DNA of 64,000 bases from the IMG/VR virus record IMGVR_UViG_3300019889_000013, positions 508-64,507 of that record. The stretch is one strand, 5' to 3'. Origin of the DNA: a virus (lineage: Duplodnaviria; Caudoviricetes). The notes under the pieces are model-generated. The model made no database searches. It was not told where the DNA came from and saw only the letters and a program-made list of their open reading frames with translations. Of this stretch, positions 899 through 60,919 are shown piece after piece. Numbering within the stretch: position 1 is the first letter of the stretch; every line of letters begins with the position of its first letter. The position numbers and the translations under genes are program-made.

Positions 899-1138
899 TC
901 ACTCGTCCTGTATGTCGGCTTGGCGCATCTTCTCCAAGACTTCGGCGTAGTCGATAATTGCCGCGCGTTCCTCCTTGGTGTGCTTGCCGTCGCATTGGTC
1001 CATGACGCGCATCCACATCCGTTCTTCGGTCCATTCCAGCAGCCTGCCGGTGTGCAAATCCTCGACGGCGTGGGTGGTGAAGAACTTCAGCGTATCGATC
1101 TGCTTGTCGGTCAGGGCAAGGACGGTTCGCTTGGTCAT
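899..1138 (-). CDS. hypothetical protein
   Basis: 79-aa ORF with AGGAG RBS, coupled to neighbours. Confidence 0.7.
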   Translation of the reverse strand: MTKRTVLALTDKQIDTLKFFTTHAVEDLHTGRLLEWTEERMWMRVMDQCDGKHTKEERAAIIDYAEVLEKMRQADIQDE

Positions 1139-1320
1139 GCCTGTTTCTCCTGTTCAGCCTTCCACTGCTTGGCGATGATGGTCATGGCCTCGTCGCGTAT
1201 CCAGTCGGCCCGGTCCCACTGTTCCAGCAGGCTCAAGCCCGGTTCTGACAGCCATGCCTTGTGCTTGGCGATCAGCCGCATGTATTCCTTCATCAGCGTG
1301 GTCTTCTGTTCATCGGACAA
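1135..1320 (-). CDS. small helical protein, paralog of nested ORF 56371-56565 (putative antitoxin/immunity protein)
   Basis: Likely TTG start at 1320 with GAGGA 8 nt upstream (ORF track starts at 1371); 23/47 ungapped identity to 56371-56565. Confidence 0.75.
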   Translation of the reverse strand: MSDEQKTTLMKEYMRLIAKHKAWLSEPGLSLLEQWDRADWIRDEAMTIIAKQWKAEQEKQA

Positions 1321-3181: not shown

Positions 3182-4048
3182 TCATCCGAAAAACTTGTTG
3201 GCGCAGACCGGGCCGATCCCGGCGGCGACACTGGCGGCGTCCGTCAGTTCGCGGGCGCAGATGCAGCATGTGCCGGTCGACCGGCCGTACTTGATCGCGG
3301 CTTCCATCGGGTCGGCGGCGATCTCGCAGAGCAGCTTCAGCGTGTCGGGCTTGGCTTCGCGCCGCGCCTCGAACTTGCCGTTGACGATCTTGCCGACATA
3401 CTCGCCGCCCAGATCGCGGTCCATGACATAGAGCGCGCCAGCGTTTCGGCCGCCTGCCGGTGCCCGCTTGATCGTCAGGCGTTCCGTCCTAAAAATCGGC
3501 TTCATCAAGCCGTTGCCCGTGGCCGTGGCGAACAGGGCGTCAATCGCCTCGACCCCCACGCTGCCGGACTTGGCTGCGTTCTCGGCGTTTTTCTCGGCCT
3601 TCTTGGCTGCGAAGAACTCGGCGTCCTTGGCCATGTCCTTGCGGATGATTTCGATTGTCGTATCGAAGAGCGATCCGTGGGCATCGAGCCGGACCTTGAA
3701 GCCGTAGTAGTAGTTGCTGCCGCTCTCGACCCGCTTGTTGACGTAGGCGATCTCGGCGGCGTGATCCGCTTCCCACTTGGCCCGGTTGGCTTGCTTGGTG
3801 GCCTTGCCTTTAACGGCGGCGACCTGTCCCTTGGAGATGTTGCCCTTGCCGTTGCACTTGAAGCATTTGCCCCAGCGCGTCTGTCCAGAGCCACTGCACT
3901 TCGGGCACTTGAACACAGCGTCACCGCCGTTGACCATGTGGGCATTGCGGCGGATGTCTTCATTGGTGGAGGTGTTGACCGGGGCGTCGAAGCTGTCGTC
4001 GTGCAGGTCTTCGAAGCTGACTGGTTCCTTGGAGGCTGAATGGTTCAT
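3182..4048 (-). CDS. DUF6011-domain Zn-finger protein
   Basis: CPKCSGSG/CFKCNGKG zinc finger and C-terminal YGRSTGTCCICARELTD..S...GIGPVCA. Confidence 0.75.
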   Translation of the reverse strand: MNHSASKEPVSFEDLHDDSFDAPVNTSTNEDIRRNAHMVNGGDAVFKCPKCSGSGQTRWGKCFKCNGKGNISKGQVAAVKGKATKQANRAKWEADHAAEIAYVNKRVESGSNYYYGFKVRLDAHGSLFDTTIEIIRKDMAKDAEFFAAKKAEKNAENAAKSGSVGVEAIDALFATATGNGLMKPIFRTERLTIKRAPAGGRNAGALYVMDRDLGGEYVGKIVNGKFEARREAKPDTLKLLCEIAADPMEAAIKYGRSTGTCCICARELTDAASVAAGIGPVCANKFFG

Positions 4049-4086
4049 CGGGCTATCCCTTCCGTGAACGAAACACTTACGATCTG

Positions 4087-4129
4087 AATGTAAACTCCGG
4101 TTACAGGGGTGTCAACTCTGTACTACGAA
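4087..4129 (-). promoter_or_regulatory. sigma70-like early promoter with upstream TTCGTAGTACA motif
   Basis: Minus strand TTGACA-17nt-TACATT; motif at 4119-4129. Confidence 0.75.
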
Positions 4130-4938
4130 ATAATTTTGCGTGGCCATACCGTCTTGAGGGTCGGCGATGGCGATGGCGACGGCGGTGTCGGCGAGAATGC
4201 CGCCTGCACCTGCTGGACCCCCCTCCCCTGCACCGACTGCTGTTCAAGTTCGGGGATTGGGGCTGGTGTGGCCGGGGAATTACGATCAGACCCGGCTGGC
4301 GGCATCTGGTAACCGGCCCGTTCCTTTTCCTCGTAGGCGATCATCGAATCGGCGGCGGTGAAAGCATAGGCAGCCACCTTACCGGCCAGTTGCGCGGCGC
4401 TCACGTTGGATGCGGAGATGAATCCCATCATCGCCTGCGCGGCGTAGTATTGCCGGATGGTCAGGCCGGGAGTGGTGTACTTGGTGCCGGTGTGCGGGTA
4501 GGCGAAGTCGAAGCTGACCAACTGCCCTTCGATGTCCACCTCGTTCGTCTTGATGCCCAGCCGGAAGCCGGTGACCGGGATCACGGTATGCGCGGTCAGG
4601 ACGTCGAGGTTGATGCGCTGCGTCGCCAGATTGGTGCCGCCTGCCTGCCAAGTGACCGGATATTCGACGTAGACACCCCGGTCAATCGGGACGCCGGTGA
4701 TGAGAAAGCTTTGCCACTTGGCCGCGTCATCCTTGTCGCGCAGGCGCACCAGATGATCCTGCGTGATCGACGTCAGGAACGCGACCGCGTCCATGCTGTT
4801 GGCGGTGGCTTCGCTGACGAACATCAGGGTGGCGTTCTTCTGCGTGGCATTGTTCAACCGTATCTGCCCGGTTGCGGGCGGGGCGGTGATCGTGTTCTGG
4901 AAATTCCACTCGCCCAAGAATGCGGGAACATCAGCCAT
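4123..4938 (-). CDS. fusion protein: tail-fibre-like N-terminal module plus GxTxRxYxAAxAM domain
   Basis: PATGQIRLNNATQ...LFVS...LRDKDD N-terminus; GLTIRQYYAAQAMMG...AF.AAD.M C-terminal domain. Confidence 0.65.
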   Translation of the reverse strand: MADVPAFLGEWNFQNTITAPPATGQIRLNNATQKNATLMFVSEATANSMDAVAFLTSITQDHLVRLRDKDDAAKWQSFLITGVPIDRGVYVEYPVTWQAGGTNLATQRINLDVLTAHTVIPVTGFRLGIKTNEVDIEGQLVSFDFAYPHTGTKYTTPGLTIRQYYAAQAMMGFISASNVSAAQLAGKVAAYAFTAADSMIAYEEKERAGYQMPPAGSDRNSPATPAPIPELEQQSVQGRGVQQVQAAFSPTPPSPSPSPTLKTVWPRKIIS

Positions 4939-33223: not shown

Positions 33224-35656
33224 ATGGCCGACATGATGACGATGAACCCACCGGCGCAAAATATGCAACTGCCGGAAAGCCTCGCCCCGGAACAGCAGCT
33301 AAGGCCGCCATCCCGCGACAAGCTCAAGGAGATCGTCGGCCGCATGGAGGCGGAAGTCACCGCCCGCATCGGCAAGCGCACCAATCTGGAGGAGCGCTGG
33401 ATTGCCGATCTGGAGCAGTACCACGGGCGCTATGACCCGCCGACCGCCAAGGTCTTGTTCGAGGAGCAGCGCTCGGGCCTGTTCATCAATGCCACCCGGC
33501 CAAAGACCGACGCGCTCGGGGCGCGGCTCAAAGACCTGTTGTTTCCGACCGACGAGAAGAACTGGGGTATCTCGCCGACGCCGGTGCCGACACTGGCCGA
33601 GAGTGCCGAGAAGGCCGCCGCCGATTTCCGCGCCAAGCAGGAGCAGGCCAAGGCGGCGCAGGAGCAACAGGCAACGGCGGCCGAAGCGGGCGCACCGCCG
33701 GACCAGCAGGCGCAGTTGACTCAACAGGCGACGCAGCAACAGGCGCAGGCCGACGAGGCCAAGGAAGCAGCATCGGTGCTGGCAGCGCGGCTGGAGGAAG
33801 GCCGCAAGCGCTCCGACCTGATGGAGAAGGAGATCGATGACCAGTTGAAGGAATGCCTGTACCAGTCGGTCAAGCGCGACCAGATCGACTGCGCGGTCAA
33901 GCTCGGCACCGGCGTGACCAAGGGGCCGGTGACGGGCGACAAGGTGCGGCGCGGCTGGAAGGCCGACCCGCAGACAGGCGAGCACAAGCTTGACGTCTCG
34001 ACCGGGCAGCAACCGGCCTACCGCTATGTCGACCTGTGGGGATTCTTCCCGGACATGGACGCCACCAAGATCGAGGACGGCAACGGCACCTTCGAGCGCC
34101 ATTTGATGAACCGGCGCATGCTCAGACAGCTTGCCGTGCTCGAAGGCTTCGACAAGGATTCAATCCGCCGCCTGCTCCAGCTTGCGCCGTCAACGTCGGC
34201 CCCGGCTTACCTTGCGCAACTCCGCAACATCCGCGCCGCAACCCAGCAGGTGACCGGCGATCTCTACCATGTGTTCGAATATTACGGGCCGCTCGAACCG
34301 CAGGACATGCAGGACATCGCGCTGTGGATGATGCAAAGCCAAGACGAGACGGTCAACGGCATCGCCAAGGAAGGCTTGAGCCAAGTGGCGGAAGTCGACC
34401 CGCTGGCGTCGGTCAACGCCTGCATCTGGTTCTGTCAGGGCGAGATATTGAAGTTCGCGCTCTACCCCTACGACAGCGGCGAGTGCATCTATTCGGTGTT
34501 CAACCTTGTCAAGGACGAGGCCTCGATCTTCGGCTATGGCATGCCGTCGATCATCCGCGATCCGCAGTCGGCGTTGAACGGCGCGTTCCGGGCGATGATG
34601 GACAATGCCGGGGTTTCCTCCGGGCCGCAGGTGATCATCGACACGCAGAACATCGAACCGGAGGACGGCGACTACCGGCTCAAGGCACGCAAGGTGTGGA
34701 AGGCCAAGAACGGCATCCAGAAGGAAAACCCGCCATTCCAGTTGTTCCACATCGAAACCCGGCAGAACGAACTCGCCAACATCATCGTCCTGTGCGAACG
34801 CTTCATCGACAACATGTCGGCGATGCCGCAGGTGATACAGGGGCAGCAGGGCGAGGTCGGCACCAACAACGCGCAGAACACCGCGACCGGCATGGCGCTG
34901 ATGCACAACTCCGCCAACACGGTGTTCCGCTCCATCGTCAAGAACTTCGATGACGACGTGACCACGCCGGACATCCGCCGCGCCTACGACTGGAACATGC
35001 AGTTCAACGAGAAGCCCGAGATCAAGGGCGACTTCGAGGTCGACGCACGCGGCAGTAGCGTCTTGCTGATGCGCGAATTGCAGGCGCAGAACCTGATGGT
35101 GATCGCCATCCAACTCGGCGGCCACCCGATCTTCGGGCCGATGCTGCGCAACCGCGAACTCCTCAAAAAGATATTCCAAGCCTACATGATCCCGGCCGAC
35201 GAGGTGATGCTCTCCGACGACGAGATCGATGCGATTCTGGCGGCGGCAGCGCAGAACAACGAGGCGGCAGCGGCGGCCAAGGCGCAGGCCGAAGCCGACG
35301 AGAAGAAGCTCGCACTGGAGAACCACAAGCTCGAAATGCAGGTGGCGCTGGCCAACCAGTCGAACGCCTCGAAGGAGCGCATCGCCAAGATGAACTACGA
35401 TGCGCAGATGAACATGACCGCCGCCAAGCTCAACATGTCGGTGCAGGAACTCGAAGCCATGCTGGCGGGCAAGGAGATGGACGTCGCCTCGAAGGAGCGC
35501 ATCTTCGCCTCCGAAGTCGGGGTCGAGCAGAAGAACGCCGAAGCCGCCCGCGCCAGAGGCGAGGAGCCGCAGGGATCAGGCGGTTATGTCGCCGGTGGCG
35601 GGTCGGCCGCGCCAGCAAAACCGGCCAAGCCGGTGGAACAGAGAGCGCCGTATTGA
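33224..35656 (+). CDS. portal protein
   Basis: 810 aa directly after terL; EERW..D..QY.G.YD, F.N.TRPK...ARL.D.LFP...NWGI, S.FGYG.P, TATGMA.L, IKGDF.VDARGSS.L. Confidence 0.88.
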   Translation: MADMMTMNPPAQNMQLPESLAPEQQLRPPSRDKLKEIVGRMEAEVTARIGKRTNLEERWIADLEQYHGRYDPPTAKVLFEEQRSGLFINATRPKTDALGARLKDLLFPTDEKNWGISPTPVPTLAESAEKAAADFRAKQEQAKAAQEQQATAAEAGAPPDQQAQLTQQATQQQAQADEAKEAASVLAARLEEGRKRSDLMEKEIDDQLKECLYQSVKRDQIDCAVKLGTGVTKGPVTGDKVRRGWKADPQTGEHKLDVSTGQQPAYRYVDLWGFFPDMDATKIEDGNGTFERHLMNRRMLRQLAVLEGFDKDSIRRLLQLAPSTSAPAYLAQLRNIRAATQQVTGDLYHVFEYYGPLEPQDMQDIALWMMQSQDETVNGIAKEGLSQVAEVDPLASVNACIWFCQGEILKFALYPYDSGECIYSVFNLVKDEASIFGYGMPSIIRDPQSALNGAFRAMMDNAGVSSGPQVIIDTQNIEPEDGDYRLKARKVWKAKNGIQKENPPFQLFHIETRQNELANIIVLCERFIDNMSAMPQVIQGQQGEVGTNNAQNTATGMALMHNSANTVFRSIVKNFDDDVTTPDIRRAYDWNMQFNEKPEIKGDFEVDARGSSVLLMRELQAQNLMVIAIQLGGHPIFGPMLRNRELLKKIFQAYMIPADEVMLSDDEIDAILAAAAQNNEAAAAAKAQAEADEKKLALENHKLEMQVALANQSNASKERIAKMNYDAQMNMTAAKLNMSVQELEAMLAGKEMDVASKERIFASEVGVEQKNAEAARARGEEPQGSGGYVAGGGSAAPAKPAKPVEQRAPY

Positions 35657-37582: not shown

Positions 37583-38581
37583 ATGACCATCACAGCTTAT
37601 GCCGATGGCGGTGTATCACCCCGCACAAATGTCTACGCGGAACGGCAGATGCTCAAGCATGCCAAGCCAGTCATGGTCTTGGAAAAGCTTGGCCTCACCA
37701 AGCCGATGCCGAAGAACAAGACGGACACCATCAAGTTCCGGCGTCCGCGTGTCTTCACCGCAGCCACCACGCCGCTGGTCGAAGGCGTCACCCCGACCGA
37801 AACGCAGTTCTCCTACGAGGACGTCTCGGCGACCCTGCGCCAGTATGGTCAGGTCGTCATCGTCACCGACAAGATCGAAGACCTGCATGAAGACCCGGTG
37901 CTCAACGACGCATCGGTGCAGGCCGGTGAAAACATCGGGCGCACCATCGAGGCGCTGAACTACGGAATTGTCAGGGCGGGCACCAGCGTGTACTACGCCA
38001 ACGGCACCCAGCGCACCGACGTCAACACCCCGATCACCCTTGGCAAGCAGCGCGCCGTGCTGCGTTCGCTCAAGGCTCTGAAGGCGCAGAAGATCACCCG
38101 TTCGCTGTCACCGTCTTCGGACTATGGCACGCGGGCGGTGGAAGCCGCCTATGTCGCCGTCGCCCACACCGACGTCGAATCCGACATCCGCAATCTCCCC
38201 GGCTTCAAGACGGTGGCCGAATACGGCACCCGTTCGCCGATCTCCGACTACGAGATCGGTTCGGTCGAGGATGTGCGCTATGTCCTGTCGCCGGACCTTA
38301 ACCCGTTCCTCAATGCCGGTGGGACACCCGGCACGATGGTATCGACGGGTGGCACCAATGCCGACGTCTACCCGATCATCTACTTCGGTCAGGATAGCTG
38401 GGGCATGGTGGCGCTGCGCGGCCAAGGTGCGGTTTCTCCCACGATTATTCCGGTTGGACAAAAGACCAAGGATGATCCGCTCGGCCAGCGCGGCTATGTC
38501 GGCTGGAAGACGTGGCACGCCGCCCTGATCCTCAATCAGGCGTGGATGTCACGGCTGGAAGTTGCAGTCTCGGCACTCTGA
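37583..38581 (+). CDS. major capsid protein (N4-gp56 family)
   Basis: SPRT..YA...ML.HA.P..VLEK.G...PMPKNK..TIKFRR, L.EGVTP, D.HEDPVL, DPLGQRGYVGWK.W. Confidence 0.92.
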   Translation: MTITAYADGGVSPRTNVYAERQMLKHAKPVMVLEKLGLTKPMPKNKTDTIKFRRPRVFTAATTPLVEGVTPTETQFSYEDVSATLRQYGQVVIVTDKIEDLHEDPVLNDASVQAGENIGRTIEALNYGIVRAGTSVYYANGTQRTDVNTPITLGKQRAVLRSLKALKAQKITRSLSPSSDYGTRAVEAAYVAVAHTDVESDIRNLPGFKTVAEYGTRSPISDYEIGSVEDVRYVLSPDLNPFLNAGGTPGTMVSTGGTNADVYPIIYFGQDSWGMVALRGQGAVSPTIIPVGQKTKDDPLGQRGYVGWKTWHAALILNQAWMSRLEVAVSAL

Positions 38582-51842: not shown

Positions 51843-54800
51843 ATGGTCGATATCGATGCCTTGTTCGCGGATGTTCCCACCGAAGCCGAACGGGTGGCAA
51901 TGGACAAGGCCAGCCTGCTCTTCGCGGACATTCCTGACGAGAAGCCAGCGGACGAGACGGGCTGGGTCGAGGGGGCTGTAACCGGAACGCTCAACACCGG
52001 GGCGCGTGCCGGGGCGCGGCTCCAGCAGGGCGGTTCCCAGTTGATGCTGGAACAGACGGCCGGTCGCGCCGCTGACCGCAAGCGGAGCTTCAGCGAGATT
52101 CTGGAAGACGAGCAGTTGTCGAGCGGCCTGACCGACATGCAGGGCAAGCCGATGAAAACCAACACCGGCGGCGAATATGTCTCGGCAGCGGCCCGCTGGA
52201 TTGATGCCAAGTATGCCGACATGATCGGCACGGACGACGAGGCGGCGGCACAGTCCTATGCCGAAAGCATGCAAAAACACATGGACGAAGTCGCGTCGAT
52301 ACCGAAGTCGCAGATCGCGCAGGCGTTCGAAAAGAAGGCGATGGTCAAGGACGCAACGCTGGGCCAGACGCTGGCCAACTTCGGCAGCGCGATTCTCGAC
52401 AATCCGGTCGGCGGCTTCTCATGGATGCTGGAGACGGCAGGAGAAAGCGCGCCGCAGATCGGCGCGGCGGTCATTGGCGGTGCGCTCACCAAAAACCCGG
52501 CGGTCGGCATCGGCCTGATGGGCGGCGGCAGCTATGCGACGGAACGCTACACGTCGCCCGGTGAGTTCTTTCAGGAGAAGGGGTTGGACCTCAAGAAGCC
52601 GGAAGACCGGGAAAAACTGCTCAATGATCCGAAGATGATGGCGGAAGCGGCAGATCGCGGCATGATCCGTGGCCTGATCATCGGTGGCTTCGACGCTCTC
52701 TCCGGTGGCATCGCAGGCAAGGCGCTGATCAAGAATCCGTTCGCCGAAGCGCTGGCGCAAACCATGACGCAGGGCCTGCTCGGCGCAGGCGGCGAATATG
52801 GCGCGCGCAAGGCGGCCGGTCAGAAGATCGACTGGGGCGAAGTCGTCGCCGAAGGCTTTGCCGAATTGGTCACCACGCCATTCGATATGGTCGCCGCCGC
52901 AAGGGGCGAACGTCCCGGCACCGCCGACGAGGCGCTCCCGGCCGGGGATGTCCTGCCAGCGGAGCCGCCGGTCGTGCCTCCCGGAGCAGCACCCGCAGCA
53001 CCGCCGGAAGCAGCACCGGCAGCACCGGCCGTGCTGGAAGCGGCAGGCTTGCCGAAGACACCCGAGAATATTGCGGTCGCCGAAAGCGTGCCGGAACAGG
53101 TCGCGCGCCAGACCGAATTGCCCGACAGCCCACGGCTGACACCGGCCGACCGCGCCTCGCCCATCCCCAACGAGATCATCGACGCAGGCAGGGCAACGGT
53201 CGAGGCGGCAACCGGGCAGGAATCAAGCTTCACCACGACGAAGGTGGTCGACGGCCACCGGCAGGTGGTCAACGCCAAGGTGTCCGATTTGGTCGCCGCC
53301 AACCGGGTCGAGACGCAGGCGGTGGTATCGGAGATCATGCAGGGGGTTGATACCCCGGAAATCCTTGCACAGCCCCAGCCAGCCGCCGCGCCTGCAAGCA
53401 CGGGCGAGATGCCGGGTACACTCGGGCCTGTTGAGGCTTCCGCCTCTGTAGCGCCTTCTATGGCCGAAACCGCGCCGGTCGCCCCGACCATAGAACGCGC
53501 CAACCAGCCGCCGCCTGCCGAAGGCTCGCCGCTCGCCGAACAGATCAAGAAGTTCAAGGCGCGCTCGGCCGCCCGCGATGTCGAGGTATCGGACCTCACC
53601 GCAAGCGGCAAGTCGATCAAGCTGGTGTCGAACCGAGATCCGACCCGCAAGGCGATGGTCGGGCCTGACATGAGCGAGCCGGGGAAATTCCGCGTCACCT
53701 ATATCGATGAGCAGGGGCCATCCGGGCACACGGTCTACGACACGATGGAGGAAGCCGCGCGCAGTGTCGTCGGCTCCTATCATCCCGTTGGCAATATCGC
53801 CAAGCAGGTGGTCAAGAAGGATGTGGCCATCACCCCGGCCGGACGCGAGGTGCCGGTGGTCTATGCCGTTGTCGAGGCCGACGATCTGGTTTCCTCGCAG
53901 CGCGACGAGGGCGGGGCCAACCCGGCCTATCCGCAGGAATTGCAGCCGCGCGACCGCAGCCGTGGCACGTCGGACGTGCAGATCAACCAGATTGCGCAGA
54001 ACCTCAACCCGGCACTTCTCGACAACGTTGCCAGCGCCACCGATGGCGCTCCCATCGTTTCCGCCGATGGCGTGGTCGAGAGCGGCAATGGCCGCGTGCT
54101 CGGCATCCGCAAGGCCTACAAGGAGAACCTGCCCGGAGGACAGACCTACCGGCAGTATCTGGTCGACCAAGGTTATATCGACACCGTCGCGGCCAAGGAG
54201 ATGAAGAACCCTGTGCTGGTGCGCATCCGGCAGGGGCAAATGGAGCCCGGTGAGCGGACGGCATTTACCCGCGAGGCCAACGAACGCACGACGATGACAT
54301 TGTCGGCGACGGAAAAGGCGATGGCCGATGCGGAGGCGCTGTCGCCGGATACGGTCGGGCTCTACAGGGGCGGCGAGGTTGCGGAGGCAGGCAACCGTGA
54401 CTTCGTCCGCTCCTTCATGCAGTCGGTGGTCAGTCCCAACGAACAGGGCGCGATGGTCACCCCGGACGGGGAACTGTCGCAGGAGGCCATCCGCCGGGTA
54501 CAGGCGGCGCTCCTCGCCCGTGCCTATGGTGACGCCGATCTCGTCGGGGCTCTGGTCGAATCGACCGACAACAACATCAAGGCCATCGGCGGCGCGATGA
54601 TGGATGTCGCAGGCGCGTGGTCGCAGATGCGTTCCGAATCCAAGGAAGGCACGATCAGCCCAGACGTCGATGTCACCCCCTTCCTACTCGAAGCCATCCG
54701 GCTGGTGCAGCGGGCGCGCAACGAGGGCAAGCCGCTGTCGGCGCTGGTGTCGCAGACCGACATTTTCTCCGGGACGACCATCGTGCCGGAAGCCGAGATG

Positions 54801-57800
54801 CTGCTGCGGCTGATGTTCCGAAACAACGTCAGTTGGACACAACCGGCCGGACGTGAGAAGCTGGCGGAAGCACTACGATATTATGTGACGGAAGCCCGCA
54901 AGACCGCACCCGGCATCGACCTGCTTGGCGAGACTGCACCACCGGCGAACAAGATTCTCGAACAGGCGAAGAAGCGGCAATATGGAACAGAAGAAACCCA
55001 AGAAAAGCTCACCCTTGGTGGTGGAACTGCTGGCAAGAACGATGGAGCACCAGCAGGAGGACGAGCCGTCGAAGCTCAACCGCGACCGAAACCTGAAAAT
55101 CGCCCAGCAGTTCCGGGAAAAACACGGGAAGAAGCCAAACTCAGCGTCCCAGAAGCCGGAACAAGAGTAACGCTTCCCGGCGGCCAGACCGCCACCATCG
55201 AGCATCCCGACGAGGAAACATTCCGCATTACTGTCGACGGCAAGCGCGTCGGCGAGATGCACCTCACCCTGAAGCGCGCCGCGCCCTATGCCACCAGCGT
55301 TTCGGTGATCGGAGAGCGGCGGCTGGGTGTGGCGACGGCGCTGTACGATGCGGCTGAAAAGGTACTCGGGCGGCGGCTGATTCCAAGTCCGCTTGGCCTG
55401 TCGCCGGAAGCGATCGCATTCTGGAAGAACCGGCTAGGTAAGATGGAGCCGGGAGAAAAGCAGGCGCTCCTCGCCGAAGCTCTGAAGATCGGACAGGACG
55501 CAGGCGTCGGCAGAACGGCGCGTGACCGGGTCGATTCTCTGGGCTACCGCGAAGAAGCCAAGTTCAAGAAGTCCAGTCTTCCCGGCCCGCTGGGTGCGGC
55601 TGTCGACCGGATGAACAAGCTGCGCCTTGAGAAGCGGCTCAATTCACCGGAGATCGCGGAGGCCATCAAGGCGATGGCGGATATCCCGGTAACCTTCGAT
55701 CCCAAGGGACCGCCGGTTGCCCAAGGCTTTTGGGACAGCAGGGCGCGAACATACAATTTCGCAGAAAAGGGCGAGCGGCCTCACCGTGTTCCAAGCAATG
55801 ACGCAGCAGTCGAGGTTCTGGTCGAGCGCGCCCGCTCTCTGGCGGTTGACGAACTCAATGGTGACCGAAAGAAGGCAGGCCAGCCGCCGCTAGAACCGTA
55901 CATCCCGTCGCGGGATCGCAAGGCAACCATCATCATCGGGCCACCGGCGGCAGGCAAGTCGACCATCGCCAATGCCATCGCGCTGCGCATGCGGGCGGCC
56001 ATCGCCGACGTCGATGATGCCAAGAAAGTCATCCCGGAATATGGCGGTGGCATCGGCGCGAATGCGGTCCACGAAGAAAGCTCGGTCTTGGGGGAGGAAG
56101 TGCTGGAGCGCCTGATGAACGCTGGCGACAATATCATCATCCCCAAGGTCGGCCACAAGCTCGCCAGCATCGAGAAGCTGCGCGAGAACTTGAAGCTATT
56201 TAACTATGACGTCGAACTCGTCCTGATGGACGTGGACCCCCGCACTGCCGTTGGCCGCATGCTCGGCCGGTTCAAGAGTAGCGGGCGGCTGATCAACCCA
56301 ACGTATTTCTTGGACGTCGTCGGCGAACCGCCGGTCACCTACGATCAGGCAAAGAAGGAAGGAAAATTCGATGGCTACTCAAGAGTCAAATCGGAAAACA
56401 ACGTTCCTACAAGAGTACACGAAGCTATTGGAAAAGCGGCGAGCGTGGCTCGGGGAGAAATCTTTGAGCGAAGCGGAGAGATTGGAACGGGGCGACCTTC
56501 TGAGGGAAGAGGCGATGAGCGTGGTGGCAAAACAGTACGAGAAAGACCACAAGAAGCAAAGCTGAAGACAGCCGAACCGGCCCCCCAGCGAGGCAAGAAT
56601 GTCGACGTCCAAGGCGGCGTCATCCACTACGCGACGTCACCCGGCTTTGAGGAAAAGGCCGATGCGGTTCTCGCAGATCTGCGCAAGGCGCTCGACAAGC
56701 TCGGCCTGACCGGCGTCGACCTTGGGGTGTGGCAGCAAATCTTCGCCGATCTGGAGTCCGGCCCGGTCGGCCCGGACGGTGTCTATCTCAGGAACGTGAT
56801 CGACATCTCCCTGCAATCCGCCGACCCGGACATGGTGCTGCACCATGAGGCGGTGCATGCGATGGTCGGTCTTGGCCTCCTCACCGATTCGGAGATGAAC
56901 ATCCTCAATCGCAAGTCGAAGAAGGAATGGATCACCGACGCGATCAAGGAGCGCTACCCGGAATCACAATGGGTCGAGGAGGGCATCGCCCACGCCTACA
57001 CCGACTGGATCAACGGCACGCGCATGGACGGCATGATTGCCCGCTCCTTCAAGAAGATAAAGACCTTCTTGAAAGCGCTGTACCAGACGCTGACCAACCA
57101 CGACATCCGCACGGCCGACGACGTCTTCCGGCAGATGACATCCGGCGAAGTCGGCAAGCGTTCGGCCGGTGCCGACACCCGCAAAGAGCCATCGTTTGCC
57201 GTGACCGAAACCGTCGACATGTTCGAGGGCAAGCGCGAACAGTATGTCCTTCCCGGCGCGGAGAAACTCACCGACGCGCAGATGGCGCAGCGCAAGGCCG
57301 AAGAGAGGATGACGGCGAAAACGGCGCAGAAGTCGGTCGAGGCGCTGCCGCTTTTTGGCGACCAGAAAGACCAGTTGGCGCTGTTCTCGAAGCCGCCATC
57401 CGGCCCGAATGATCCGCGCTTCAATCTCAATGTGCCGCCGCACACCACGACGCAGGCGGCGGCGGTAACGCAAGGGTTCCTCAATCGCGGCCAGTTTGTC
57501 GACCGTGCTATCCGGGTGCCGTTCCAGTTGTTCGGCGGGCTCGACAGCCAGAACCGCTGGCGGGCCACCAAGCGGCTGACCGACATGATGGGACCGCAAA
57601 GAATACAGGCAGGAAGTCTCAGCGCCGTCATTGGCGGTGCGGTTGGCGGGGCGATAGCCGGTCCCATTGGCGGCGTGGCTGGCTTTTTCGCAGCAGGGAC
57701 GGCGGGCGCGTACATCCTTGGTTCGGCACCGGCACCGGCGAACGGCAAGTTCGGCTGGTTCAAGAGTATCGCGGAGAACGGCAAGCGCGGCCTGATCGAC

Positions 57801-60206
57801 GGCTACGGGCTCGACCCGGCCTATATCGAGGCCTACCAGAAAAGCGATCTCGGCAAGGCCGCGATCATGCGCAAGGCACAGGACGTCCTCAAGGTGCTGT
57901 CCAATGCGGGTGTCAGCGCGCCGGAAGCCAAGGTGTTGCAGGCGGTCCTGACCGGCGAGAACGTGACCGACGCCGACATGATCAAGCTGGCGGTGCCGAT
58001 CCGCAAGGCAATCGATGACATGGGAGCCGAAGCCGTTTCCCTTGGATTGATCTCGGCCGAAAGTTTCGAGAGAAACCGCGCCTCCTACCTGCACCGCGTC
58101 TACACCAAGAACGAGATCGACCAGTCGACGCTGGCAGGCTGGGTGTCGGCCAAGATGACCGGACGCCGCAAGAAGATCATCGGCGACCAGTTGAAGGGTC
58201 GCGGCATGTTCATGGACATCGAGACTGACCGGCTGATGCAGGACGTCGATTCGTTCAAGAGCGGCAAGCGCGGCGGGCCGCAGCTTAACGAGAAGTTCCG
58301 GGTGATCGATGAGGTGAGTTCAACGCCGAATCTCAATCCAACTGCCCCTGCCAGCGACAAGGTGTTGCGCCGCATCTACCTGCCGACAAACGAGGCGGTG
58401 CCTGCCAAGTATCAGGGGCCAAACTGGGTGGATCGCGGGACGTGGGAGGTGCGCAAGTCCGGCGCAAAGCAGACGCTATGGCGCGACTACACCAAGGAAG
58501 AGCGCGGCAAGATGGGCGAGCTTGTCGATGCCCGCTACACCATCGCCAAGACCTTCATGCTGATGGCCAACGATCTGTCGACCGGGCGATTCTTCAAGGA
58601 AGTCTCCGAGAAGGACGAGTGGACCCGTTCGATGCAGCCGCCGGATGGCCAGTGGAAAGAGGCGTCCGAGTACAACCAGTATTGGAACGACCCGGAGATT
58701 CAATGGGTCAAGGTGCCCGATACCAACATCGCCGACACCGGCGGCAAGAAGCGCTGGGGTGCGCTGGCGAACAAGTTTGTCCGGGCGGAAATCTGGCGCG
58801 ATCTCAACGAGGTCAACATCGCCAACAACCCCGGCACATGGCGCATTCTTTTGACGCAATGGAAGAAGAACAAGACCGCGCGTAACCCGGTCGTTCACAT
58901 GAACAACGTCGTCTCGAACCTGATGTTCATGGACCTTGCCGATGTCCGCGCCCAAGACCTCGTCGCTGGCATCAAGGCTTTTGCCAAGGGCGACGTCCAC
59001 TATCAGGAAGCGCTCGACAACGGTGCGTTCGGCGGCGACATGGTTGCCCAAGAGATCAGGGACGAAGTGTTCAAGCCACTGCTCGATGCGATCACCAAGC
59101 AATCGACCGGCGCTGGCAATCCCTTCCTTGCCAAGGCTGGCATGGTGGGCGTCGTCGCTGACAAGTTGTGGACGTGGGCCAAGGCCGCCGACAACGGCAT
59201 GCTCCGGGCCTATCAGGCAGAGGATCAGATATTCCGCATGGCCACCTACATGCGCCGCCGCAGTCAAGGCGAGAGTCCGAAGGTGGCAGCGGCCAATGCC
59301 CGCGACCAGTTCCTCAACTACGACATCCGCGCGCCGTGGATACGGGCCATGCGCAATTCATTCTTCCCGTTCATTTCCTACACCTACCGGGCGGTGCCGA
59401 TGCTGGCGGAAAACTTCATGCACCGGCCGTGGAAGGTGGCGAAGTACGTGGCCATCGCCTTCGCGGTCAATGCGCTGTCCTACATGTTCGATGACGGCGA
59501 CGACGGCGAGGAGCGCGAACGTGCGGCGCTGCGCGACGAGGAGCAGGGTTACTCATGGCTGGGCACGCCGCGCATGGTGCGCATGCCGTGGCGCGATGCG
59601 CATGGCCTGCCGGTGTTCCTCGACGTGCGCAGGTGGGTGCCAGCAGGCGACATCTTCGACACCACGCAAGGCTCGTCGGCGCTGCCGATCCCGGCTCCGC
59701 TGATGTTCGGTGGGCCGATGATGTTGGCTGTCGAGTTGATGCTGAACAAATCGGCATTCACCGGCGAGGAGATCATCAACGAACTGACCGACACCTCAAC
59801 GGACAAGGCTGCGAAGATCGCCGATTATCTCTGGAAGGCGTGGATGCCGAACTCGTTCTGGACGCCAAACTCATGGTACTGGACCAAGATCAGCAACGCG
59901 CTGCATGGCGCGACCGACAGCGCCGGTCGCCCCTATTCGATACCGCAGGCGGTCGCCTCCTCCTTCGGCATCAAAATAAAGCCGCTCGATGTCGAGGACG
60001 GAATCAAGTGGCACTTCTACGATTTCCAGAAGGTGCAGAAGGAACTGAAGTCACAGTTGCGCTCGGCGTCCGGGCGGCTTGATCGCGGCTTGATCAGCCA
60101 GTCGGCTTTCGATGCCGAAGCCGCTGCGATCATGGCGAAGTTCGAAACGCTCGGCGGGAAGATTGATACATTCTCGCGACAAACCGAGAAGAAGCCAAAG
60201 CCATGA
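51843..60206 (+). CDS. giant polyvalent virion protein: DdrB-like ParB, GNAT, zeta-toxin-like kinase, zincin (MPTase) and LPD38-like domains
   Basis: YPQELQPRDR...GAPIV...VESGNGR (about 53820-54920); RRLGVATALY (about 55200-55440); GPPAAGKST, D.DDAKK.IPEY, VHEES (about 55920-56370); LHHEAVH...EEGIA (about 56840-57000). Confidence 0.85.
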   Translation: MVDIDALFADVPTEAERVAMDKASLLFADIPDEKPADETGWVEGAVTGTLNTGARAGARLQQGGSQLMLEQTAGRAADRKRSFSEILEDEQLSSGLTDMQGKPMKTNTGGEYVSAAARWIDAKYADMIGTDDEAAAQSYAESMQKHMDEVASIPKSQIAQAFEKKAMVKDATLGQTLANFGSAILDNPVGGFSWMLETAGESAPQIGAAVIGGALTKNPAVGIGLMGGGSYATERYTSPGEFFQEKGLDLKKPEDREKLLNDPKMMAEAADRGMIRGLIIGGFDALSGGIAGKALIKNPFAEALAQTMTQGLLGAGGEYGARKAAGQKIDWGEVVAEGFAELVTTPFDMVAAARGERPGTADEALPAGDVLPAEPPVVPPGAAPAAPPEAAPAAPAVLEAAGLPKTPENIAVAESVPEQVARQTELPDSPRLTPADRASPIPNEIIDAGRATVEAATGQESSFTTTKVVDGHRQVVNAKVSDLVAANRVETQAVVSEIMQGVDTPEILAQPQPAAAPASTGEMPGTLGPVEASASVAPSMAETAPVAPTIERANQPPPAEGSPLAEQIKKFKARSAARDVEVSDLTASGKSIKLVSNRDPTRKAMVGPDMSEPGKFRVTYIDEQGPSGHTVYDTMEEAARSVVGSYHPVGNIAKQVVKKDVAITPAGREVPVVYAVVEADDLVSSQRDEGGANPAYPQELQPRDRSRGTSDVQINQIAQNLNPALLDNVASATDGAPIVSADGVVESGNGRVLGIRKAYKENLPGGQTYRQYLVDQGYIDTVAAKEMKNPVLVRIRQGQMEPGERTAFTREANERTTMTLSATEKAMADAEALSPDTVGLYRGGEVAEAGNRDFVRSFMQSVVSPNEQGAMVTPDGELSQEAIRRVQAALLARAYGDADLVGALVESTDNNIKAIGGAMMDVAGAWSQMRSESKEGTISPDVDVTPFLLEAIRLVQRARNEGKPLSALVSQTDIFSGTTIVPEAEMLLRLMFRNNVSWTQPAGREKLAEALRYYVTEARKTAPGIDLLGETAPPANKILEQAKKRQYGTEETQEKLTLGGGTAGKNDGAPAGGRAVEAQPRPKPENRPAVPGKTREEAKLSVPEAGTRVTLPGGQTATIEHPDEETFRITVDGKRVGEMHLTLKRAAPYATSVSVIGERRLGVATALYDAAEKVLGRRLIPSPLGLSPEAIAFWKNRLGKMEPGEKQALLAEALKIGQDAGVGRTARDRVDSLGYREEAKFKKSSLPGPLGAAVDRMNKLRLEKRLNSPEIAEAIKAMADIPVTFDPKGPPVAQGFWDSRARTYNFAEKGERPHRVPSNDAAVEVLVERARSLAVDELNGDRKKAGQPPLEPYIPSRDRKATIIIGPPAAGKSTIANAIALRMRAAIADVDDAKKVIPEYGGGIGANAVHEESSVLGEEVLERLMNAGDNIIIPKVGHKLASIEKLRENLKLFNYDVELVLMDVDPRTAVGRMLGRFKSSGRLINPTYFLDVVGEPPVTYDQAKKEGKFDGYSRVKSENNVPTRVHEAIGKAASVARGEIFERSGEIGTGRPSEGRGDERGGKTVRERPQEAKLKTAEPAPQRGKNVDVQGGVIHYATSPGFEEKADAVLADLRKALDKLGLTGVDLGVWQQIFADLESGPVGPDGVYLRNVIDISLQSADPDMVLHHEAVHAMVGLGLLTDSEMNILNRKSKKEWITDAIKERYPESQWVEEGIAHAYTDWINGTRMDGMIARSFKKIKTFLKALYQTLTNHDIRTADDVFRQMTSGEVGKRSAGADTRKEPSFAVTETVDMFEGKREQYVLPGAEKLTDAQMAQRKAEERMTAKTAQKSVEALPLFGDQKDQLALFSKPPSGPNDPRFNLNVPPHTTTQAAAVTQGFLNRGQFVDRAIRVPFQLFGGLDSQNRWRATKRLTDMMGPQRIQAGSLSAVIGGAVGGAIAGPIGGVAGFFAAGTAGAYILGSAPAPANGKFGWFKSIAENGKRGLIDGYGLDPAYIEAYQKSDLGKAAIMRKAQDVLKVLSNAGVSAPEAKVLQAVLTGENVTDADMIKLAVPIRKAIDDMGAEAVSLGLISAESFERNRASYLHRVYTKNEIDQSTLAGWVSAKMTGRRKKIIGDQLKGRGMFMDIETDRLMQDVDSFKSGKRGGPQLNEKFRVIDEVSSTPNLNPTAPASDKVLRRIYLPTNEAVPAKYQGPNWVDRGTWEVRKSGAKQTLWRDYTKEERGKMGELVDARYTIAKTFMLMANDLSTGRFFKEVSEKDEWTRSMQPPDGQWKEASEYNQYWNDPEIQWVKVPDTNIADTGGKKRWGALANKFVRAEIWRDLNEVNIANNPGTWRILLTQWKKNKTARNPVVHMNNVVSNLMFMDLADVRAQDLVAGIKAFAKGDVHYQEALDNGAFGGDMVAQEIRDEVFKPLLDAITKQSTGAGNPFLAKAGMVGVVADKLWTWAKAADNGMLRAYQAEDQIFRMATYMRRRSQGESPKVAAANARDQFLNYDIRAPWIRAMRNSFFPFISYTYRAVPMLAENFMHRPWKVAKYVAIAFAVNALSYMFDDGDDGEERERAALRDEEQGYSWLGTPRMVRMPWRDAHGLPVFLDVRRWVPAGDIFDTTQGSSALPIPAPLMFGGPMMLAVELMLNKSAFTGEEIINELTDTSTDKAAKIADYLWKAWMPNSFWTPNSWYWTKISNALHGATDSAGRPYSIPQAVASSFGIKIKPLDVEDGIKWHFYDFQKVQKELKSQLRSASGRLDRGLISQSAFDAEAAAIMAKFETLGGKIDTFSRQTEKKPKP
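54982..55170 (+). CDS. putative nested ORF in the +1 frame behind the DdrB-ParB domain
   Basis: MEQKKPKKSSPLVVELLARTMEHQQEDEPSKLNRDRNLKIAQQFREKHGKKPNSASQKPEQE; host frame here has atypical A/T-ending codons. Confidence 0.45.
   Translation: MEQKKPKKSSPLVVELLARTMEHQQEDEPSKLNRDRNLKIAQQFREKHGKKPNSASQKPEQE
56371..56565 (+). CDS. nested ORF in the +1 frame behind the zeta domain, putative antitoxin/immunity protein
   Basis: AAGGAAGG RBS 8 nt upstream; 23/47 identity with early gene 1135-1320. Confidence 0.75.
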   Translation: MATQESNRKTTFLQEYTKLLEKRRAWLGEKSLSEAERLERGDLLREEAMSVVAKQYEKDHKKQS

Positions 60207-60919
60207 TCCAGTTCGACCGCAAGACCTACTTCGACATGGTCCGTGACAGCCTGTTCATGGGCAAGATCACACAGCAGCAGGTAGACGGGCAAGATTTTAT
60301 CCTCGACACATGGGAGGACACGCGGCCGGGGCATGACATCCGCTGGCTGTCCTATGAACTGGCGACCACCATCCACGAAACCGCCTCGACCATGTGGCCG
60401 ATAGAGGAGTACGGCAAGGGCAAGGGCCAGCCCTACGGCGTTCCTGATCCAAAAACCGGCGAGGCCTATTACGGGCGCGGCTTCGTGCAACTGACGTGGA
60501 TAGACAACTACCGGAAGATGACGCCGATCATCGTTCCATTCTTTTCGGCGACGGCCATCGATCTGGTGCAGAATCCAAGCCAAGCGCTGATCCCGGAGAT
60601 TGCCGCAGCCATCATGTTCGAGGGCATGGAGCGCGGCTCGTTCCGCAAGGGGCAGACGCTGGCGCGTTACTTCGATGAGGATACGGACGATCCGTTCGGG
60701 GCGCGGGAGATCATCAACGGCGACAAGAAGAGCGTGCCGTCATGGTCGAACGGGGTGAGTATCGGCAATCTGATCAAGGGCTATCATGAAAAATTCCTGT
60801 CGGCGCTCAAGGCATCGCAGACAGCGGTCGTGCCGCCACCAGTATCGGAGCCAACAAGGGGCGTGGTCACGCTGGTCGGCGATCTCGAAGTCTGGCTCAA
60901 TGGGGTAAAACTTGCGTGA
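60203..60919 (+). CDS. endolysin, glycoside hydrolase family 19-like
   Basis: LAT..HET...M.PIEEYG, YYGRGFVQLTW..NY, AR.IING.D. Confidence 0.88.
   Translation: MIQFDRKTYFDMVRDSLFMGKITQQQVDGQDFILDTWEDTRPGHDIRWLSYELATTIHETASTMWPIEEYGKGKGQPYGVPDPKTGEAYYGRGFVQLTWIDNYRKMTPIIVPFFSATAIDLVQNPSQALIPEIAAAIMFEGMERGSFRKGQTLARYFDEDTDDPFGAREIINGDKKSVPSWSNGVSIGNLIKGYHEKFLSALKASQTAVVPPPVSEPTRGVVTLVGDLEVWLNGVKLA

Follow-up and report, generated by a model that had tools for sequence, protein, structure and literature searches.

A small gene nested in the +1 frame of a phage polyvalent protein gene, and its possible antitoxin-like role towards the adjacent zeta-like kinase domain

Zeta toxins and PezT are kinases that phosphorylate UDP-sugars and are toxic to the cell. 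Kinase domains resembling them have been noted in the polyvalent proteins of phages and in MuF fusions (Iyer et al. 2017, PMC5512222). The word 'overlapping' does not occur in the text of that paper, and its one passage on zeta proposes no zeta inhibitor. Our literature search, which covered that text, found no published antitoxin nested in a polyvalent gene. The locus described here raises the question of whether such a kinase domain comes with an inhibitor encoded on the same DNA in another frame. It lies in a 64,000-nucleotide stretch of a Caudoviricetes genome (IMG/VR record IMGVR_UViG_3300019889_000013), here called the window.

The host gene and the reading frame nested in it

The features of the locus are as follows.

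51843..60206, + strand: host gene, encoding a 2787-aa polyvalent protein (P0002), a putative virion protein, with ddrB-ParB, zeta-like kinase and HExxH regions and a glycine-rich hydrophobic stretch in its C-terminal part
54982..55170, + strand: second nested gene, +1 frame, 62 aa, in the linker that follows the ParB region, encoding a different protein
55908..56396, + strand: zeta-toxin-like P-loop kinase domain, host residues 1356-1518 (PF06414, E 9.5e-16)
56343..56613, + strand: stretch of low host-frame GC3 (150-nt windows; minimum host GC3 0.32, +1-frame GC3 up to 0.72)
56355..56362, + strand: Shine-Dalgarno-like AAGGAAGG
56371..56565, + strand: nested gene, +1 frame, 64 aa (P0001), predicted two-helix hairpin
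56844..56858, + strand: HExxH motif (HEAVH) in the domain after the linker, identified from sequence only

The host gene closes the structural module, being found 3' of the portal (33224-35656) and major head (37583-38581) genes and preceding an endolysin-like gene (60203-60919). Its ddrB-ParB domain (Pfam match at host residues 666-796) places it in the same class as the polyvalent proteins of Iyer et al. 2017 (PMC5512222), and by this analogy and the gene context its product is probably a virion protein.

The kinase domain belongs to the Zeta_toxin family by profile, with 58.3 bits against a cut-off of 22.3, and shows weak sequence matches to the solved structures of zeta (1gvn_B, E 0.0044) and PezT (2p5t_B, E 0.0097). 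The motifs GPPAAGKST, ADVDDAKK and AVHEES, which a sequence-only reading had picked out, are all present in the host translation. The first of these (Walker A) and ADVDDAKK are unchanged across six relatives, which places the domain in the zeta family by motif as well. We take the Asp of the ADVDDAKK-type acidic motif, which follows strand 2, to be the catalytic base. Residues H369, E370 and H373 of the HExxH motif are also invariant in six relatives; this domain has no Pfam match in the host protein, and by analogy it may be linked to the zincin peptidases of polyvalent proteins (PMC5512222). The AlphaFold model of a 401-aa host region was poor (mean pLDDT 53.4), with the linker region (residues 219-300) below 50. 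The linker had been called low-complexity. It is not strictly so, but it does form the low-confidence part of the model.

The nested ORF lies entirely within the polyvalent gene and has its own start and stop, with the coordinates and frame first reported for it. Its ATG takes two bases (2-3) from host codon D1510 and one (base 1) from G1511, in an FDGY motif. The ORF begins nine codons before the end of the Pfam Zeta_toxin match and continues downstream in the host gene. It is a complete ORF inside another gene in another frame, and its frame is conserved beyond what the outer frame explains, as expected of embedded out-of-frame genes of the Rz1-in-Rz type. In phage lambda, the larger Rz gene wholly contains the small gene Rz1, which is read in the +1 frame from a start of its own, and the Rz and Rz1 proteins cooperate. 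The nested gene resembles Rz1 in being a complete small +1 gene inside a larger phage gene. Rz and Rz1 serve in lysis and their proteins are unrelated to the present ones; here the outer gene is giant and multi-domain, and the nested gene lies over a domain end and a linker.

The best explanation of the whole locus, to which we give a probability of roughly 0.55, is a functional nested gene whose product binds the adjacent zeta-like kinase domain and probably holds it inactive. Ribosomes would most likely initiate internally on the late polyvalent mRNA, using the ATG and Shine-Dalgarno sequence of the nested gene. The product, modelled as a 64-aa two-helix hairpin, would bind the neighbouring kinase domain and probably keep it inactive in the virion-producing cell, as an antitoxin or immunity protein does; the kinase would act only once delivered into a new host. 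If this is true, the DNA for a phage-delivered toxin domain also encodes, in another frame, an inhibitor of that domain. It would also explain how giant phage proteins armed with zeta-type kinases are produced safely, add a class of small genes overlooked by gene callers and standard annotation, and give a simple pair of proteins with which the long-standing question of polyvalent zeta-domain function could be tested.

The predicted hairpin and the kinase domain

In the epsilon/zeta and PezA/PezT systems, as described in PMC10532202, a zeta-family P-loop kinase is encoded adjacent to a small helical binder, and the same holds here for a predicted binder. Unlike in those systems, the kinase in the window is an internal domain of the putative virion protein. 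The epsilon and pezA genes are found upstream of the toxin in one operon, whereas the small gene here is downstream, within the toxin's own reading frame but shifted by +1. The nested protein also differs from epsilon and PezA in having two predicted helices, no sequence similarity to them and no DNA-binding part. AlphaFold2 modelled its helices at residues 3-27 and 34-63 (mean pLDDT 73.5), which is not the three-helix bundle of epsilon and PezA. Pfam searches with P0001 and P0003 (E up to 0.1) returned no families, including the Epsilon_antitox and PezA C-terminal families. Homology to epsilon or PezA was ruled out by the lack of a Pfam match and by the two helices in place of three.

Epsilon is a three-helix bundle and ng_epsilon1 is extended, so the zeta antitoxins described in these papers are unrelated in fold (PMC10532202, PMC5923241), and a new small helical inhibitor is therefore plausible. 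The ng_epsilon1/ng_zeta1 pair of Neisseria gonorrhoeae illustrates that a small fold unrelated to epsilon can neutralise zeta from the kinase surface (PMC5923241). That pair is a separate two-gene operon for which binding and rescue were established by experiment, whereas binding by the nested protein is predicted. MuF and other polymorphic toxins (PMC5576092) similarly combine a phage-borne toxin domain with a small variable protector encoded directly after it. In these the toxin is C-terminal and followed by a separate immunity ORF, whereas in the window it is an internal domain and the candidate protector is overlapped by the continuing host frame; the locus is thus not a polymorphic toxin and immunity cassette of the usual form.

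Co-folding of the zeta domain with the nested protein, a check named in the sequence-only reading, gave a score of 0.65, compared with 0.13 for the best of three controls. The three runs scored 0.65, 0.00 and 0.66, with a between-run contact agreement of at least 0% and a partner pLDDT of at least 54. The mark used is reached by 58 of 80 solved complexes and by 2 of 110 mismatched pairs, counts that are rough here as custom alignments were used. The co-fold thus passed its controls but scored 0.00 in one of three runs, and an antitoxin-like role of the nested product is therefore supported rather than shown; binding to the zeta domain is likewise a supported prediction. The predicted contacts are concentrated in one part of the domain.

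56070..56204, + strand: predicted contact helices, host residues 1410-1454, the two zeta-domain helices with most predicted contacts

In the numbering of the co-fold (A3, to which 1299 is added for the host number) the interface spans residues 111-155. It touches H111 and E112 of the AVHEES motif and omits the Walker A loop (67-75) and the DVDD motif (90-93).

That the predicted interface misses the P-loop favours a second explanation, which we regard as possible and clearly less probable than kinase inhibition. The nested ORF may be real and selected while its product serves the giant protein as a chaperone or packaging factor, regulates the proteolytic processing of that protein by the HExxH domain, or acts on the host. 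Every observation given below in favour of a genuine gene fits this explanation equally well, and the small protein has no similarity to any antitoxin family. The second nested gene (54982-55170) points the same way: it is equally conserved and has the same architecture as the first, encodes an unrelated protein and lies in another linker, at a distance from the zeta domain; genes nested in linkers are thus not confined to toxin domains. The two nested proteins gave an hhalign probability of relatedness of 0.2%. Against the second explanation, the co-fold puts the small protein on the zeta domain, with no control above 0.13, and a +1 ORF accompanies the zeta domain in loci of very different architecture.

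This last observation comes from a wider set of zeta-bearing loci. An ATG-initiated +1 ORF of 48-102 aa is present at the end of the zeta domain in 71/71 of the non-redundant loci fetched (GC 0.33-0.73); the synonymous-redraw expectation is that 12.8 of the 71 would be stop-free. The architecture around the zeta domain varies widely among these loci, and the products of their +1 ORFs are unrelated. The sequence-only reading proposed the capture of a toxin-plus-immunity cassette. The observations fit a two-part module composed of zeta domain and +1 ORF. No free-standing form, with a zeta gene followed by a downstream small gene, was found. It is a tentative suggestion that all polyvalent zeta kinase domains carry a hidden, fast-evolving antidote gene in the +1 frame, that this two-frame module moves as a unit, and that an early free copy, as in the window, gives immunity against the phage's own or a rival's kinase. 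As the pattern seems general, re-annotation of polyvalent genes in all frames could reveal many inhibitor families.

Kinship of the nested family to the 'MATxxSTTT...' family of other zeta loci was rejected, since the two align only over the first six residues, which the host frame dictates (probability 3.8%). In a wider set of 35 loci per-column conservation was mixed, and the C-terminal part carried no clear frame signal. Anchored on the stop, a codon-position test of 27 wider-family loci was flat (0.37/0.31/0.33).

The nested frame as a gene

Orthologous nested ORFs, with an ATG and a stop, occur in the same place in four relatives (L003, L004, L083 and L152). Together with the window these form a set of five polyvalent genes whose zeta regions are 44-55% identical. 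The ribosome-binding site claimed for the nested ORF is present as AAGGAAGG, 8 nt before the ATG, and purine-rich stretches are found 8-14 nt 5' of the ATG in all four relatives as well. A promoter and terminator scan of 54700-56800 gave nothing close to the nested start.

These start signals bear on whether the small protein is made separately at all. A +1 ribosomal frameshift, or a 1-nt genomic variant, could instead yield a truncated polyvalent protein with a cis-inhibitory helical tail. EzeT is one polypeptide with its own antitoxin part. The validated zeta systems listed in PMC10532202 include it as 'the dual TA EzeT'. A database protein, P0100 (151 aa, from a 64.5-kb contig), runs from the C-terminal part of a zeta domain into the frame of the small protein and then stops; its start within the domain points to an indel-prone assembly. 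The purine-rich stretches upstream of the ATG speak against a frameshift. So does the ATG itself, which heads the ORF in 5/5 orthologs, with D/N-G as the underlying host codon pair in three of them and Y-V in the other two. There is almost no space to shift in L003 and L083, where a +1-frame stop precedes the ATG by only six codons; no slippery motif was seen by eye, and the family also exists as a stand-alone gene. We consider a frameshift product very improbable.

The nested ORF keeps its start, its stop and a length of 64-66 aa in all five lineages, in spite of the divergence of their zeta domains, and only 2.8% of synonymous recodings leave four of the orthologs open together. In the overlap the GC3 of the host frame is 0.37-0.45, compared with 0.69-0.87 in the flanks, and that of the nested frame is 0.63-0.74, in all five genes. 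Unusual A/T-ending host codons had been remarked on in the window, where host-frame GC3 is indeed 0.37 in the overlap and 0.77 over the whole gene. The stretch 56343..56613 is one of only two in the host gene with a host GC3 below 0.5 (150-nt windows), and in the three complete genes such values occur only over the two nested ORFs. The nested gene has GC1/2/3 values of 0.54/0.37/0.63, resembling those of its free-standing paralog (0.55/0.37/0.79).

Identity at the three host codon positions is 0.55/0.63/0.63 in the overlap block, compared with 0.59-0.76/0.64-0.81/0.46-0.59 in four flanking blocks. In the overlap the +1-frame protein is more conserved (identity 0.46) than the host protein (0.42). 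Its similarity is above a synonymous-redraw null at z=10.9, whereas the flanking blocks gave z=1.8-5.0 in the same test. The host frame, too, exceeds the conservation expected from redrawing the nested protein (z=7.7, compared with a control range of 2.1-4.5 at that frame offset), and the host stretch is therefore not a pure passenger. The sequence comparisons support the view that the host frame over the nested gene is a tolerant linker, needed only to stay open, with the nested frame as the main selective constraint. The motif GKF[DN]GY occurs only in loci bearing the nested gene, which leaves a comparison of its D/N codon without controls. Of L003, L004 and L083, none conserves the boundary motif RPQEAKLK in its host frame.

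The close pair L004 and L152 gives the finest view of substitution. In nucleotides 1-114 of the nested ORF there are six changes, five of them on nested third positions; four of these five are silent in the nested frame and all five alter a host residue. The last 87 nt contain 21 changes, spread over all codon positions and altering both proteins. Overall, the zeta domain (76/600) does not change faster than the overlap (27/201).

An overlap rate that is not reduced, together with a C-terminal third which evolves fast in both frames, would suit a small gene overrun by gene fusion and now decaying, neither expressed nor selected. Such a remnant is very improbable given the retained start, stop and length, the unrecovered codon composition of the host frame, the mostly nested-synonymous changes of the first 114 nt and the rarity with which recoded orthologs stay open jointly. 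The host gene has 15 other +1 frames of at least 55 codons, which would speak for a frame left open by chance in GC-rich DNA; this reading is refuted by the orthologs and by a match of E 2e-19 to a separate gene in the same genome. Length by itself is thus not significant, and the significance of the nested ORF comes from its homology and conservation. From the orthologs, the GC3 pattern, the substitutions and the z of 10.9, the sequence-only reading was right to call the nested frame a real gene, and the +1 frame does stay intact in homologs (5/5), with nested-frame signals of selection. Sequence comparison confirms that 56371-56565 is a gene under selection and not a chance ORF.

The free-standing paralog and database relatives

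The separate gene that matches the nested one lies at the other end of the window.

1135..1320, - strand: free-standing paralog, 61 aa from a TTG at 1320 or 78 aa from an ATG at 1371

This gene had been described as an independent early gene related to the nested one. The gene and its paralogy stand; its strand is corrected to minus, and its start to TTG or ATG. The protein-database form is the 61-aa TTG-start version (P0004), and a GAGGA is found about 8 nt upstream of the TTG. The stop codon of the paralog shares bases with the start codon of the gene that follows (ATGA at 1135-1138). It lies in a recombination and early region, the upstream gene (1310-2242) being exonuclease-like, and from this position it is probably an early gene. 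BLASTP aligned the nested and free-standing proteins without gaps over 57 residues (25/57 identical, 43/57 positive), and both end at the aligned stop; the gapless alignment of 23/47 reported earlier is the core of this one. The two copies are the sole matches to the small protein within this genome.

The paralog could provide the same binding activity early in infection. A protective role for it is speculation, and the stand-alone copy would be a natural test of an inhibitor role in phage-phage competition. An early paralog is not supported as a general feature: it was found only in this genome, and no second copy was detected in three related virus records (33-76% complete). It is 41% identical to the nested copy of its own genome, a value no higher than those among nested copies from different phages. 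In a tree of ten small proteins, one of seven inner branches was supported.

Searches of INPHARED phages, by blastn with 55000-58000 and by tblastn with P0003, gave no match. Viral-contig scans found nothing with either P0003 or a 601-aa host stretch as query, and PHROGs and PADLOC had no matches for the small protein. The ESM Atlas and Foldseek against the PDB gave nothing usable for it, with no Foldseek PDB match at E <=0.001. A word-indexed protein search with P0003 returned its own entry P0004 alone. Among 1.84 billion cluster representatives, none is an entry for the nested protein of the window itself.

Dynamic programming found no +1-frame coding for P0102, P0103 or the tail of P0100 in any of the long proteins P0005-P0099 (best 8 residues); the positive control, P0001 in P0002, gave 63/63. 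A HMMER scan of the 1.84 billion representatives with a two-sequence profile gave six matches at E <=0.001, one of which is P0004. The match P0104 (435 aa, with repeats) was set aside as spurious. P0101, P0102 and P0103 are found on contigs of 616, 1086 and 574 bp, and P0105, a cluster-mate of P0103, comes from a 49.4-kb contig.

Host gene and nested reading frame

The virus record is 64.5 kb long, about 78% complete and has a G+C content of 61.7%. Its structural block, which includes the portal and major head genes, ends with the gene for a 2787-aa protein and is followed by an endolysin-like gene. Because it carries ParB and zeta domains and lies at the end of the structural block, this protein is a polyvalent protein of the class of Iyer et al. 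2017; that paper (PMC5512222) includes zeta-toxin-like kinases in this class. The features concerned are as follows.

1135-1320, minus strand: early paralog of the nested ORF, 61 aa in its database form, with a TTG start at 1320 preceded by GAGGA
33224-35656: portal gene, structural block
37583-38581: major head gene, structural block
51843-60206, plus strand: gene for the polyvalent protein, 2787 aa (translation)
Residues 666-796 of the 2787-aa protein, plus strand: ddrB-like ParB domain (Pfam)
Residues 1356-1518 of the 2787-aa protein, plus strand: Zeta_toxin domain (Pfam, 58.3 bits against a cut-off of 22.3)
56371-56565, plus strand: nested ORF, 64 aa, +1 frame, wholly within 51843-60206

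The sequence-only reading placed a 64-aa +1 ORF with its own ribosome-binding site wholly inside the polyvalent gene, at the end of the zeta domain. Its coordinates and frame were confirmed, and the putative ribosome-binding site AAGGAAGG is found 8 nt upstream of the ATG. This ATG is composed of bases 2 and 3 of an Asp codon and base 1 of a Gly codon in the host motif FDGY, and the Pfam Zeta_toxin match ends 9 codons further on. The length of the ORF alone is uninformative, because the host gene contains 15 other +1 open frames of at least 55 codons.

Two further elements of the host frame lie nearby. RPQEAKLK, a repeated 'EEAKL'-type boundary motif (window 56530-56560), falls on the 3' end of the nested ORF; the related loci L003, L004 and L083 do not conserve it in their host frames. 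The domain after the linker (host residues about 1590-1700) carries an invariant HExxH motif (window 56844-56858). Six relatives conserve this domain, but Pfam gives no match to it in this protein; by analogy, it may correspond to the zincin peptidase that has been proposed to autoprocess polyvalent proteins.

Conservation and selection in the overlap

The case that the nested ORF exceeds chance rests on four independent lines of sequence evidence: orthologs, composition, frame-wise conservation and a close pair. The zeta region of the six relatives was aligned and used to scan public contigs. A six-frame profile search of the fetched loci found the small protein nested at the same place in the +1 frame in 2 of 80 viral loci (L003 and L004), 1 of 67 metagenome loci (L083) and none of 5 genome loci; the viral and metagenome sets overlap, some loci being the same contigs. 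A further viral contig with the nested protein, L152, was retrieved via the small-protein alignment. The +1 frame has stayed open in all four orthologs, which keep the ATG and the stop over 65-66 codons, and their zeta regions are only 44-55% identical to that of the window. The nested start lies over the host codon pair D/N-G (window, L003, L083) or Y-V (L004, L152).

In all five genes the host-frame GC3 is 0.37-0.45 over the ORF, compared with 0.69-0.87 in the 600-nt flanks, and the nested-frame GC3 is 0.63-0.74. By codon position, G+C in the nested ORF (0.54/0.37/0.63) resembles that in the free-standing paralog (0.55/0.37/0.79); the host frame has 0.65/0.54/0.37 over the ORF, and the host gene as a whole 0.64/0.46/0.77. 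When the three complete genes (8.4-10 kb) were scanned without bias in 150-nt windows, host GC3 dropped below 0.5 in exactly two stretches per gene, the zeta-end ORF and a second nested ORF.

54982-55170, plus strand: second nested ORF, 62 aa, +1 frame, in the linker after the ParB region
L003 9168-9338, L004 5097-5258 and L083 1838-2002: the same ORF in relatives, nested in the same polyvalent gene
L152 4588-4752 and L158 about 4001-4138: likewise

The second ORF lies just upstream of a GNAT-like stretch and is 62-73% identical in these five loci. Its GC3 is 0.76-0.86, against 0.31-0.43 in the host frame (window, L003, L004, L083, L152). Its product shows no relationship to the zeta-end protein (hhalign probability 0.2%) and no match in PADLOC, and the window contains it only once.

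Across four orthologs, the host codon-position identity in the ungapped overlap block is 0.55/0.63/0.63. In four flanking blocks it is 0.59-0.76/0.64-0.81/0.46-0.59, the third position being least conserved or tied for least. Protein identity in the overlap block is higher in the +1 frame (0.46) than in the host frame (0.42). When synonymous codons were redrawn with the host protein fixed, the +1 similarity of the overlap lay 10.9 sd above this null, which is too lenient alone because flanking blocks also score 1.8-5.0; the overlap is well clear of these controls. Host-frame conservation is likewise somewhat higher than expected from the nested protein alone (z 7.7, control range 2.1-4.5). We read the overlap as dual coding, with the nested frame dominant in the first two thirds.

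Between L004 and L152, a close pair, 76 of 600 zeta-domain nucleotides differ (16/16/44 at codon positions 1/2/3), as do 27 of 201 in the nested ORF. Six changes fall in nested nucleotides 1-114, five of them at nested third positions; of these five, four leave the nested residue unchanged, and each of the five alters a host residue. The last 87 nt hold 21 changes at all codon positions, and the nested C-terminal tail is therefore fast-evolving in both frames. The orthologs, the GC3 shift, the redraw score and the close-pair substitutions uphold the earlier claim of a real gene, and comparison of the orthologs shows a conserved nested gene whose frame dominates selection. The composition of the overlap reflects the present balance of constraint between the frames, not their order of origin.

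Predicted fold and binding of the nested protein

The small protein has no match in Pfam, PHROGs, PADLOC or the ESM Atlas, and among 1.84 billion representatives a full HMMER scan found just six matches. None of the six is an in-frame domain of a large protein except P0100, a 151-aa database protein from a 64.5-kb public contig, in which the C-terminal half of a zeta domain continues without a break into the small-protein frame as far as the small-protein stop. Either P0100 results from a 1-nt assembly error or is a pseudogene, or it represents a natural variant in which the small protein forms the C-terminal tail of the kinase.

The complex of the zeta domain (residues 35-235 of the six-relative alignment) with the nested protein (from the small-protein alignment) was predicted in three runs with our own alignments and three controls. 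The score was 0.65, against 0.13 for the best control. Of the solved complexes, 58 of 80 attain the mark used, compared with 2 of 110 mismatched pairs; both counts are rough because our own alignments were used. Two runs gave 0.65 and 0.66 but one gave 0.00; contact agreement between runs was at least 0% and the partner pLDDT at least 54. The proposed binding of the nested protein to the zeta domain is supported by these models and not demonstrated. Confident contacts involve host residues 1410-1426 (from the H-E of AVHEES), 1442-1454 and 1488, and small-protein residues 10-16 and 35-60; the P-loop is absent from the list. The predicted arrangement is a helical hairpin seated on two kinase helices beside the AVHEES motif. 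The zeta domain has only weak sequence similarity to solved zeta and PezT (E 0.004-0.01), which makes it less probable that the prediction simply reproduces a solved complex.

The AlphaFold2 model of the small protein, made from six sequences, has helices at 3-27 and 34-63 with a mean pLDDT of 73.5, the alignments behind the structure models being shallow. Foldseek found no PDB match to it at E 0.001 or better. The epsilon/PezA antitoxins fold as three-helix bundles and block the active site (PMC10532202), whereas the small protein has two predicted helices. Homology to epsilon/PezA is ruled out by the lack of a family match, the two-helix model and the lack of a Foldseek PDB match. A small protein of unrelated fold can inhibit a zeta kinase, as PMC5923241 describes for ng_epsilon1.

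Early paralog, origin and other zeta loci

The gapless alignment of the nested product to the early gene was confirmed with the product of 1135-1371 (minus strand), at 25/57 identical and 43/57 positive residues (E 2e-19). The two proteins end at the same aligned position and are the only matches in the whole record. The paralog overlaps the upstream gene, whose stop lies at 1310-1312, and shares an ATGA with the downstream gene. The minus-strand run (899-2242) comprises an exonuclease-like gene (1310-2242), the paralog and a 79-aa ORF (899-1138), and a RecT-like fragment at the window start adjoins it. The position of the paralog in a tightly coupled run beside exonuclease-like and RecT-like genes suggests that it is co-expressed with recombination genes.

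The idea that the paralog is a general part of the system found no support, as three related virus records (33%, 73% and 76% complete) have no second copy. The early protein is 41% identical to the nested copy of its own genome, its nearest relative is P0101 (50%, 110 aa, on a 616-bp contig) and the small-protein tree does not resolve; for these reasons the paralog appears to be old or imported, not a conserved part of the system.

We propose that the nested product would be translated by internal initiation on the late mRNA and would inhibit the kinase in the virion-producing cell, the inhibition being released on packaging or delivery. The paralog would be expressed early and, speculatively, might quench the injected kinase or give immunity against related virions. 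The overlap more probably arose by read-through fusion over a small gene that was already there than by de novo birth, since the small-protein family has an ordinary free-standing member; an unfused zeta-plus-small-gene arrangement was not found.

Nested +1 genes are known in phages, such as Rz1 in Rz, as are zeta antitoxins and polyvalent proteins. What seems new is the combination of a stand-alone paralog with a candidate inhibitor gene that sits inside a giant virion-protein gene, across the end of its product's predicted binding partner, the toxin domain; this combination appears in none of the literature searched, including the available part of PMC5512222.

All fetched loci in which 480 nt or more of host frame follow a zeta motif were collapsed at 97% identity, giving 71 (G+C 0.33 to 0.73). 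A +1 ATG-ORF of 48-102 aa (median 64) is present at the end of the zeta domain in all 71. Its start lies between 184 and 358 nt past the GANAVH-type motif, and in 40 loci the offset is 316; the +1 ORF is constantly associated with the zeta domain. For the 35 loci with a G+C below 0.5, the median open-frame length at this place is 70 codons in +1 and 26 in +2; ranked within its own gene, the +1 frame has a median percentile of 89 (minimum 77). Such frames are otherwise rare at 33-45% G+C and are present in those zeta loci too. Synonymous redraws gave an expectation of 12.8 of 71 stop-free, an indication rather than a probability since the observed span was tested and the loci are related. These results suggest that a nested partner gene is a general property of these zeta domains.

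The +1 products are diverse and form several unrelated-looking groups, such as MATxxSTTT..SSK..FDYD.. and MPKST..PSKGFLDLEEIENRS.. In the large MATxxSTTT group only the host-dictated first six residues align with the 64-aa protein; per-column conservation is mixed, and the C-terminal part has no clear frame signal. A GC3 dip with a high +1 GC3 directly follows the zeta domain in L160, L162, L053, L073, L097/L099/L106, L135, L024 and L049, which are GC-rich polyvalent genes with no detectable homolog of the 64-aa protein. A host GC3 collapse with a high GC3 in another frame also occurs at L053 7889-8129, L003 9476-9656, L131 2823-3123 and L106 2131-2311; these stretches may be further nested genes at a distance from the zeta domain.
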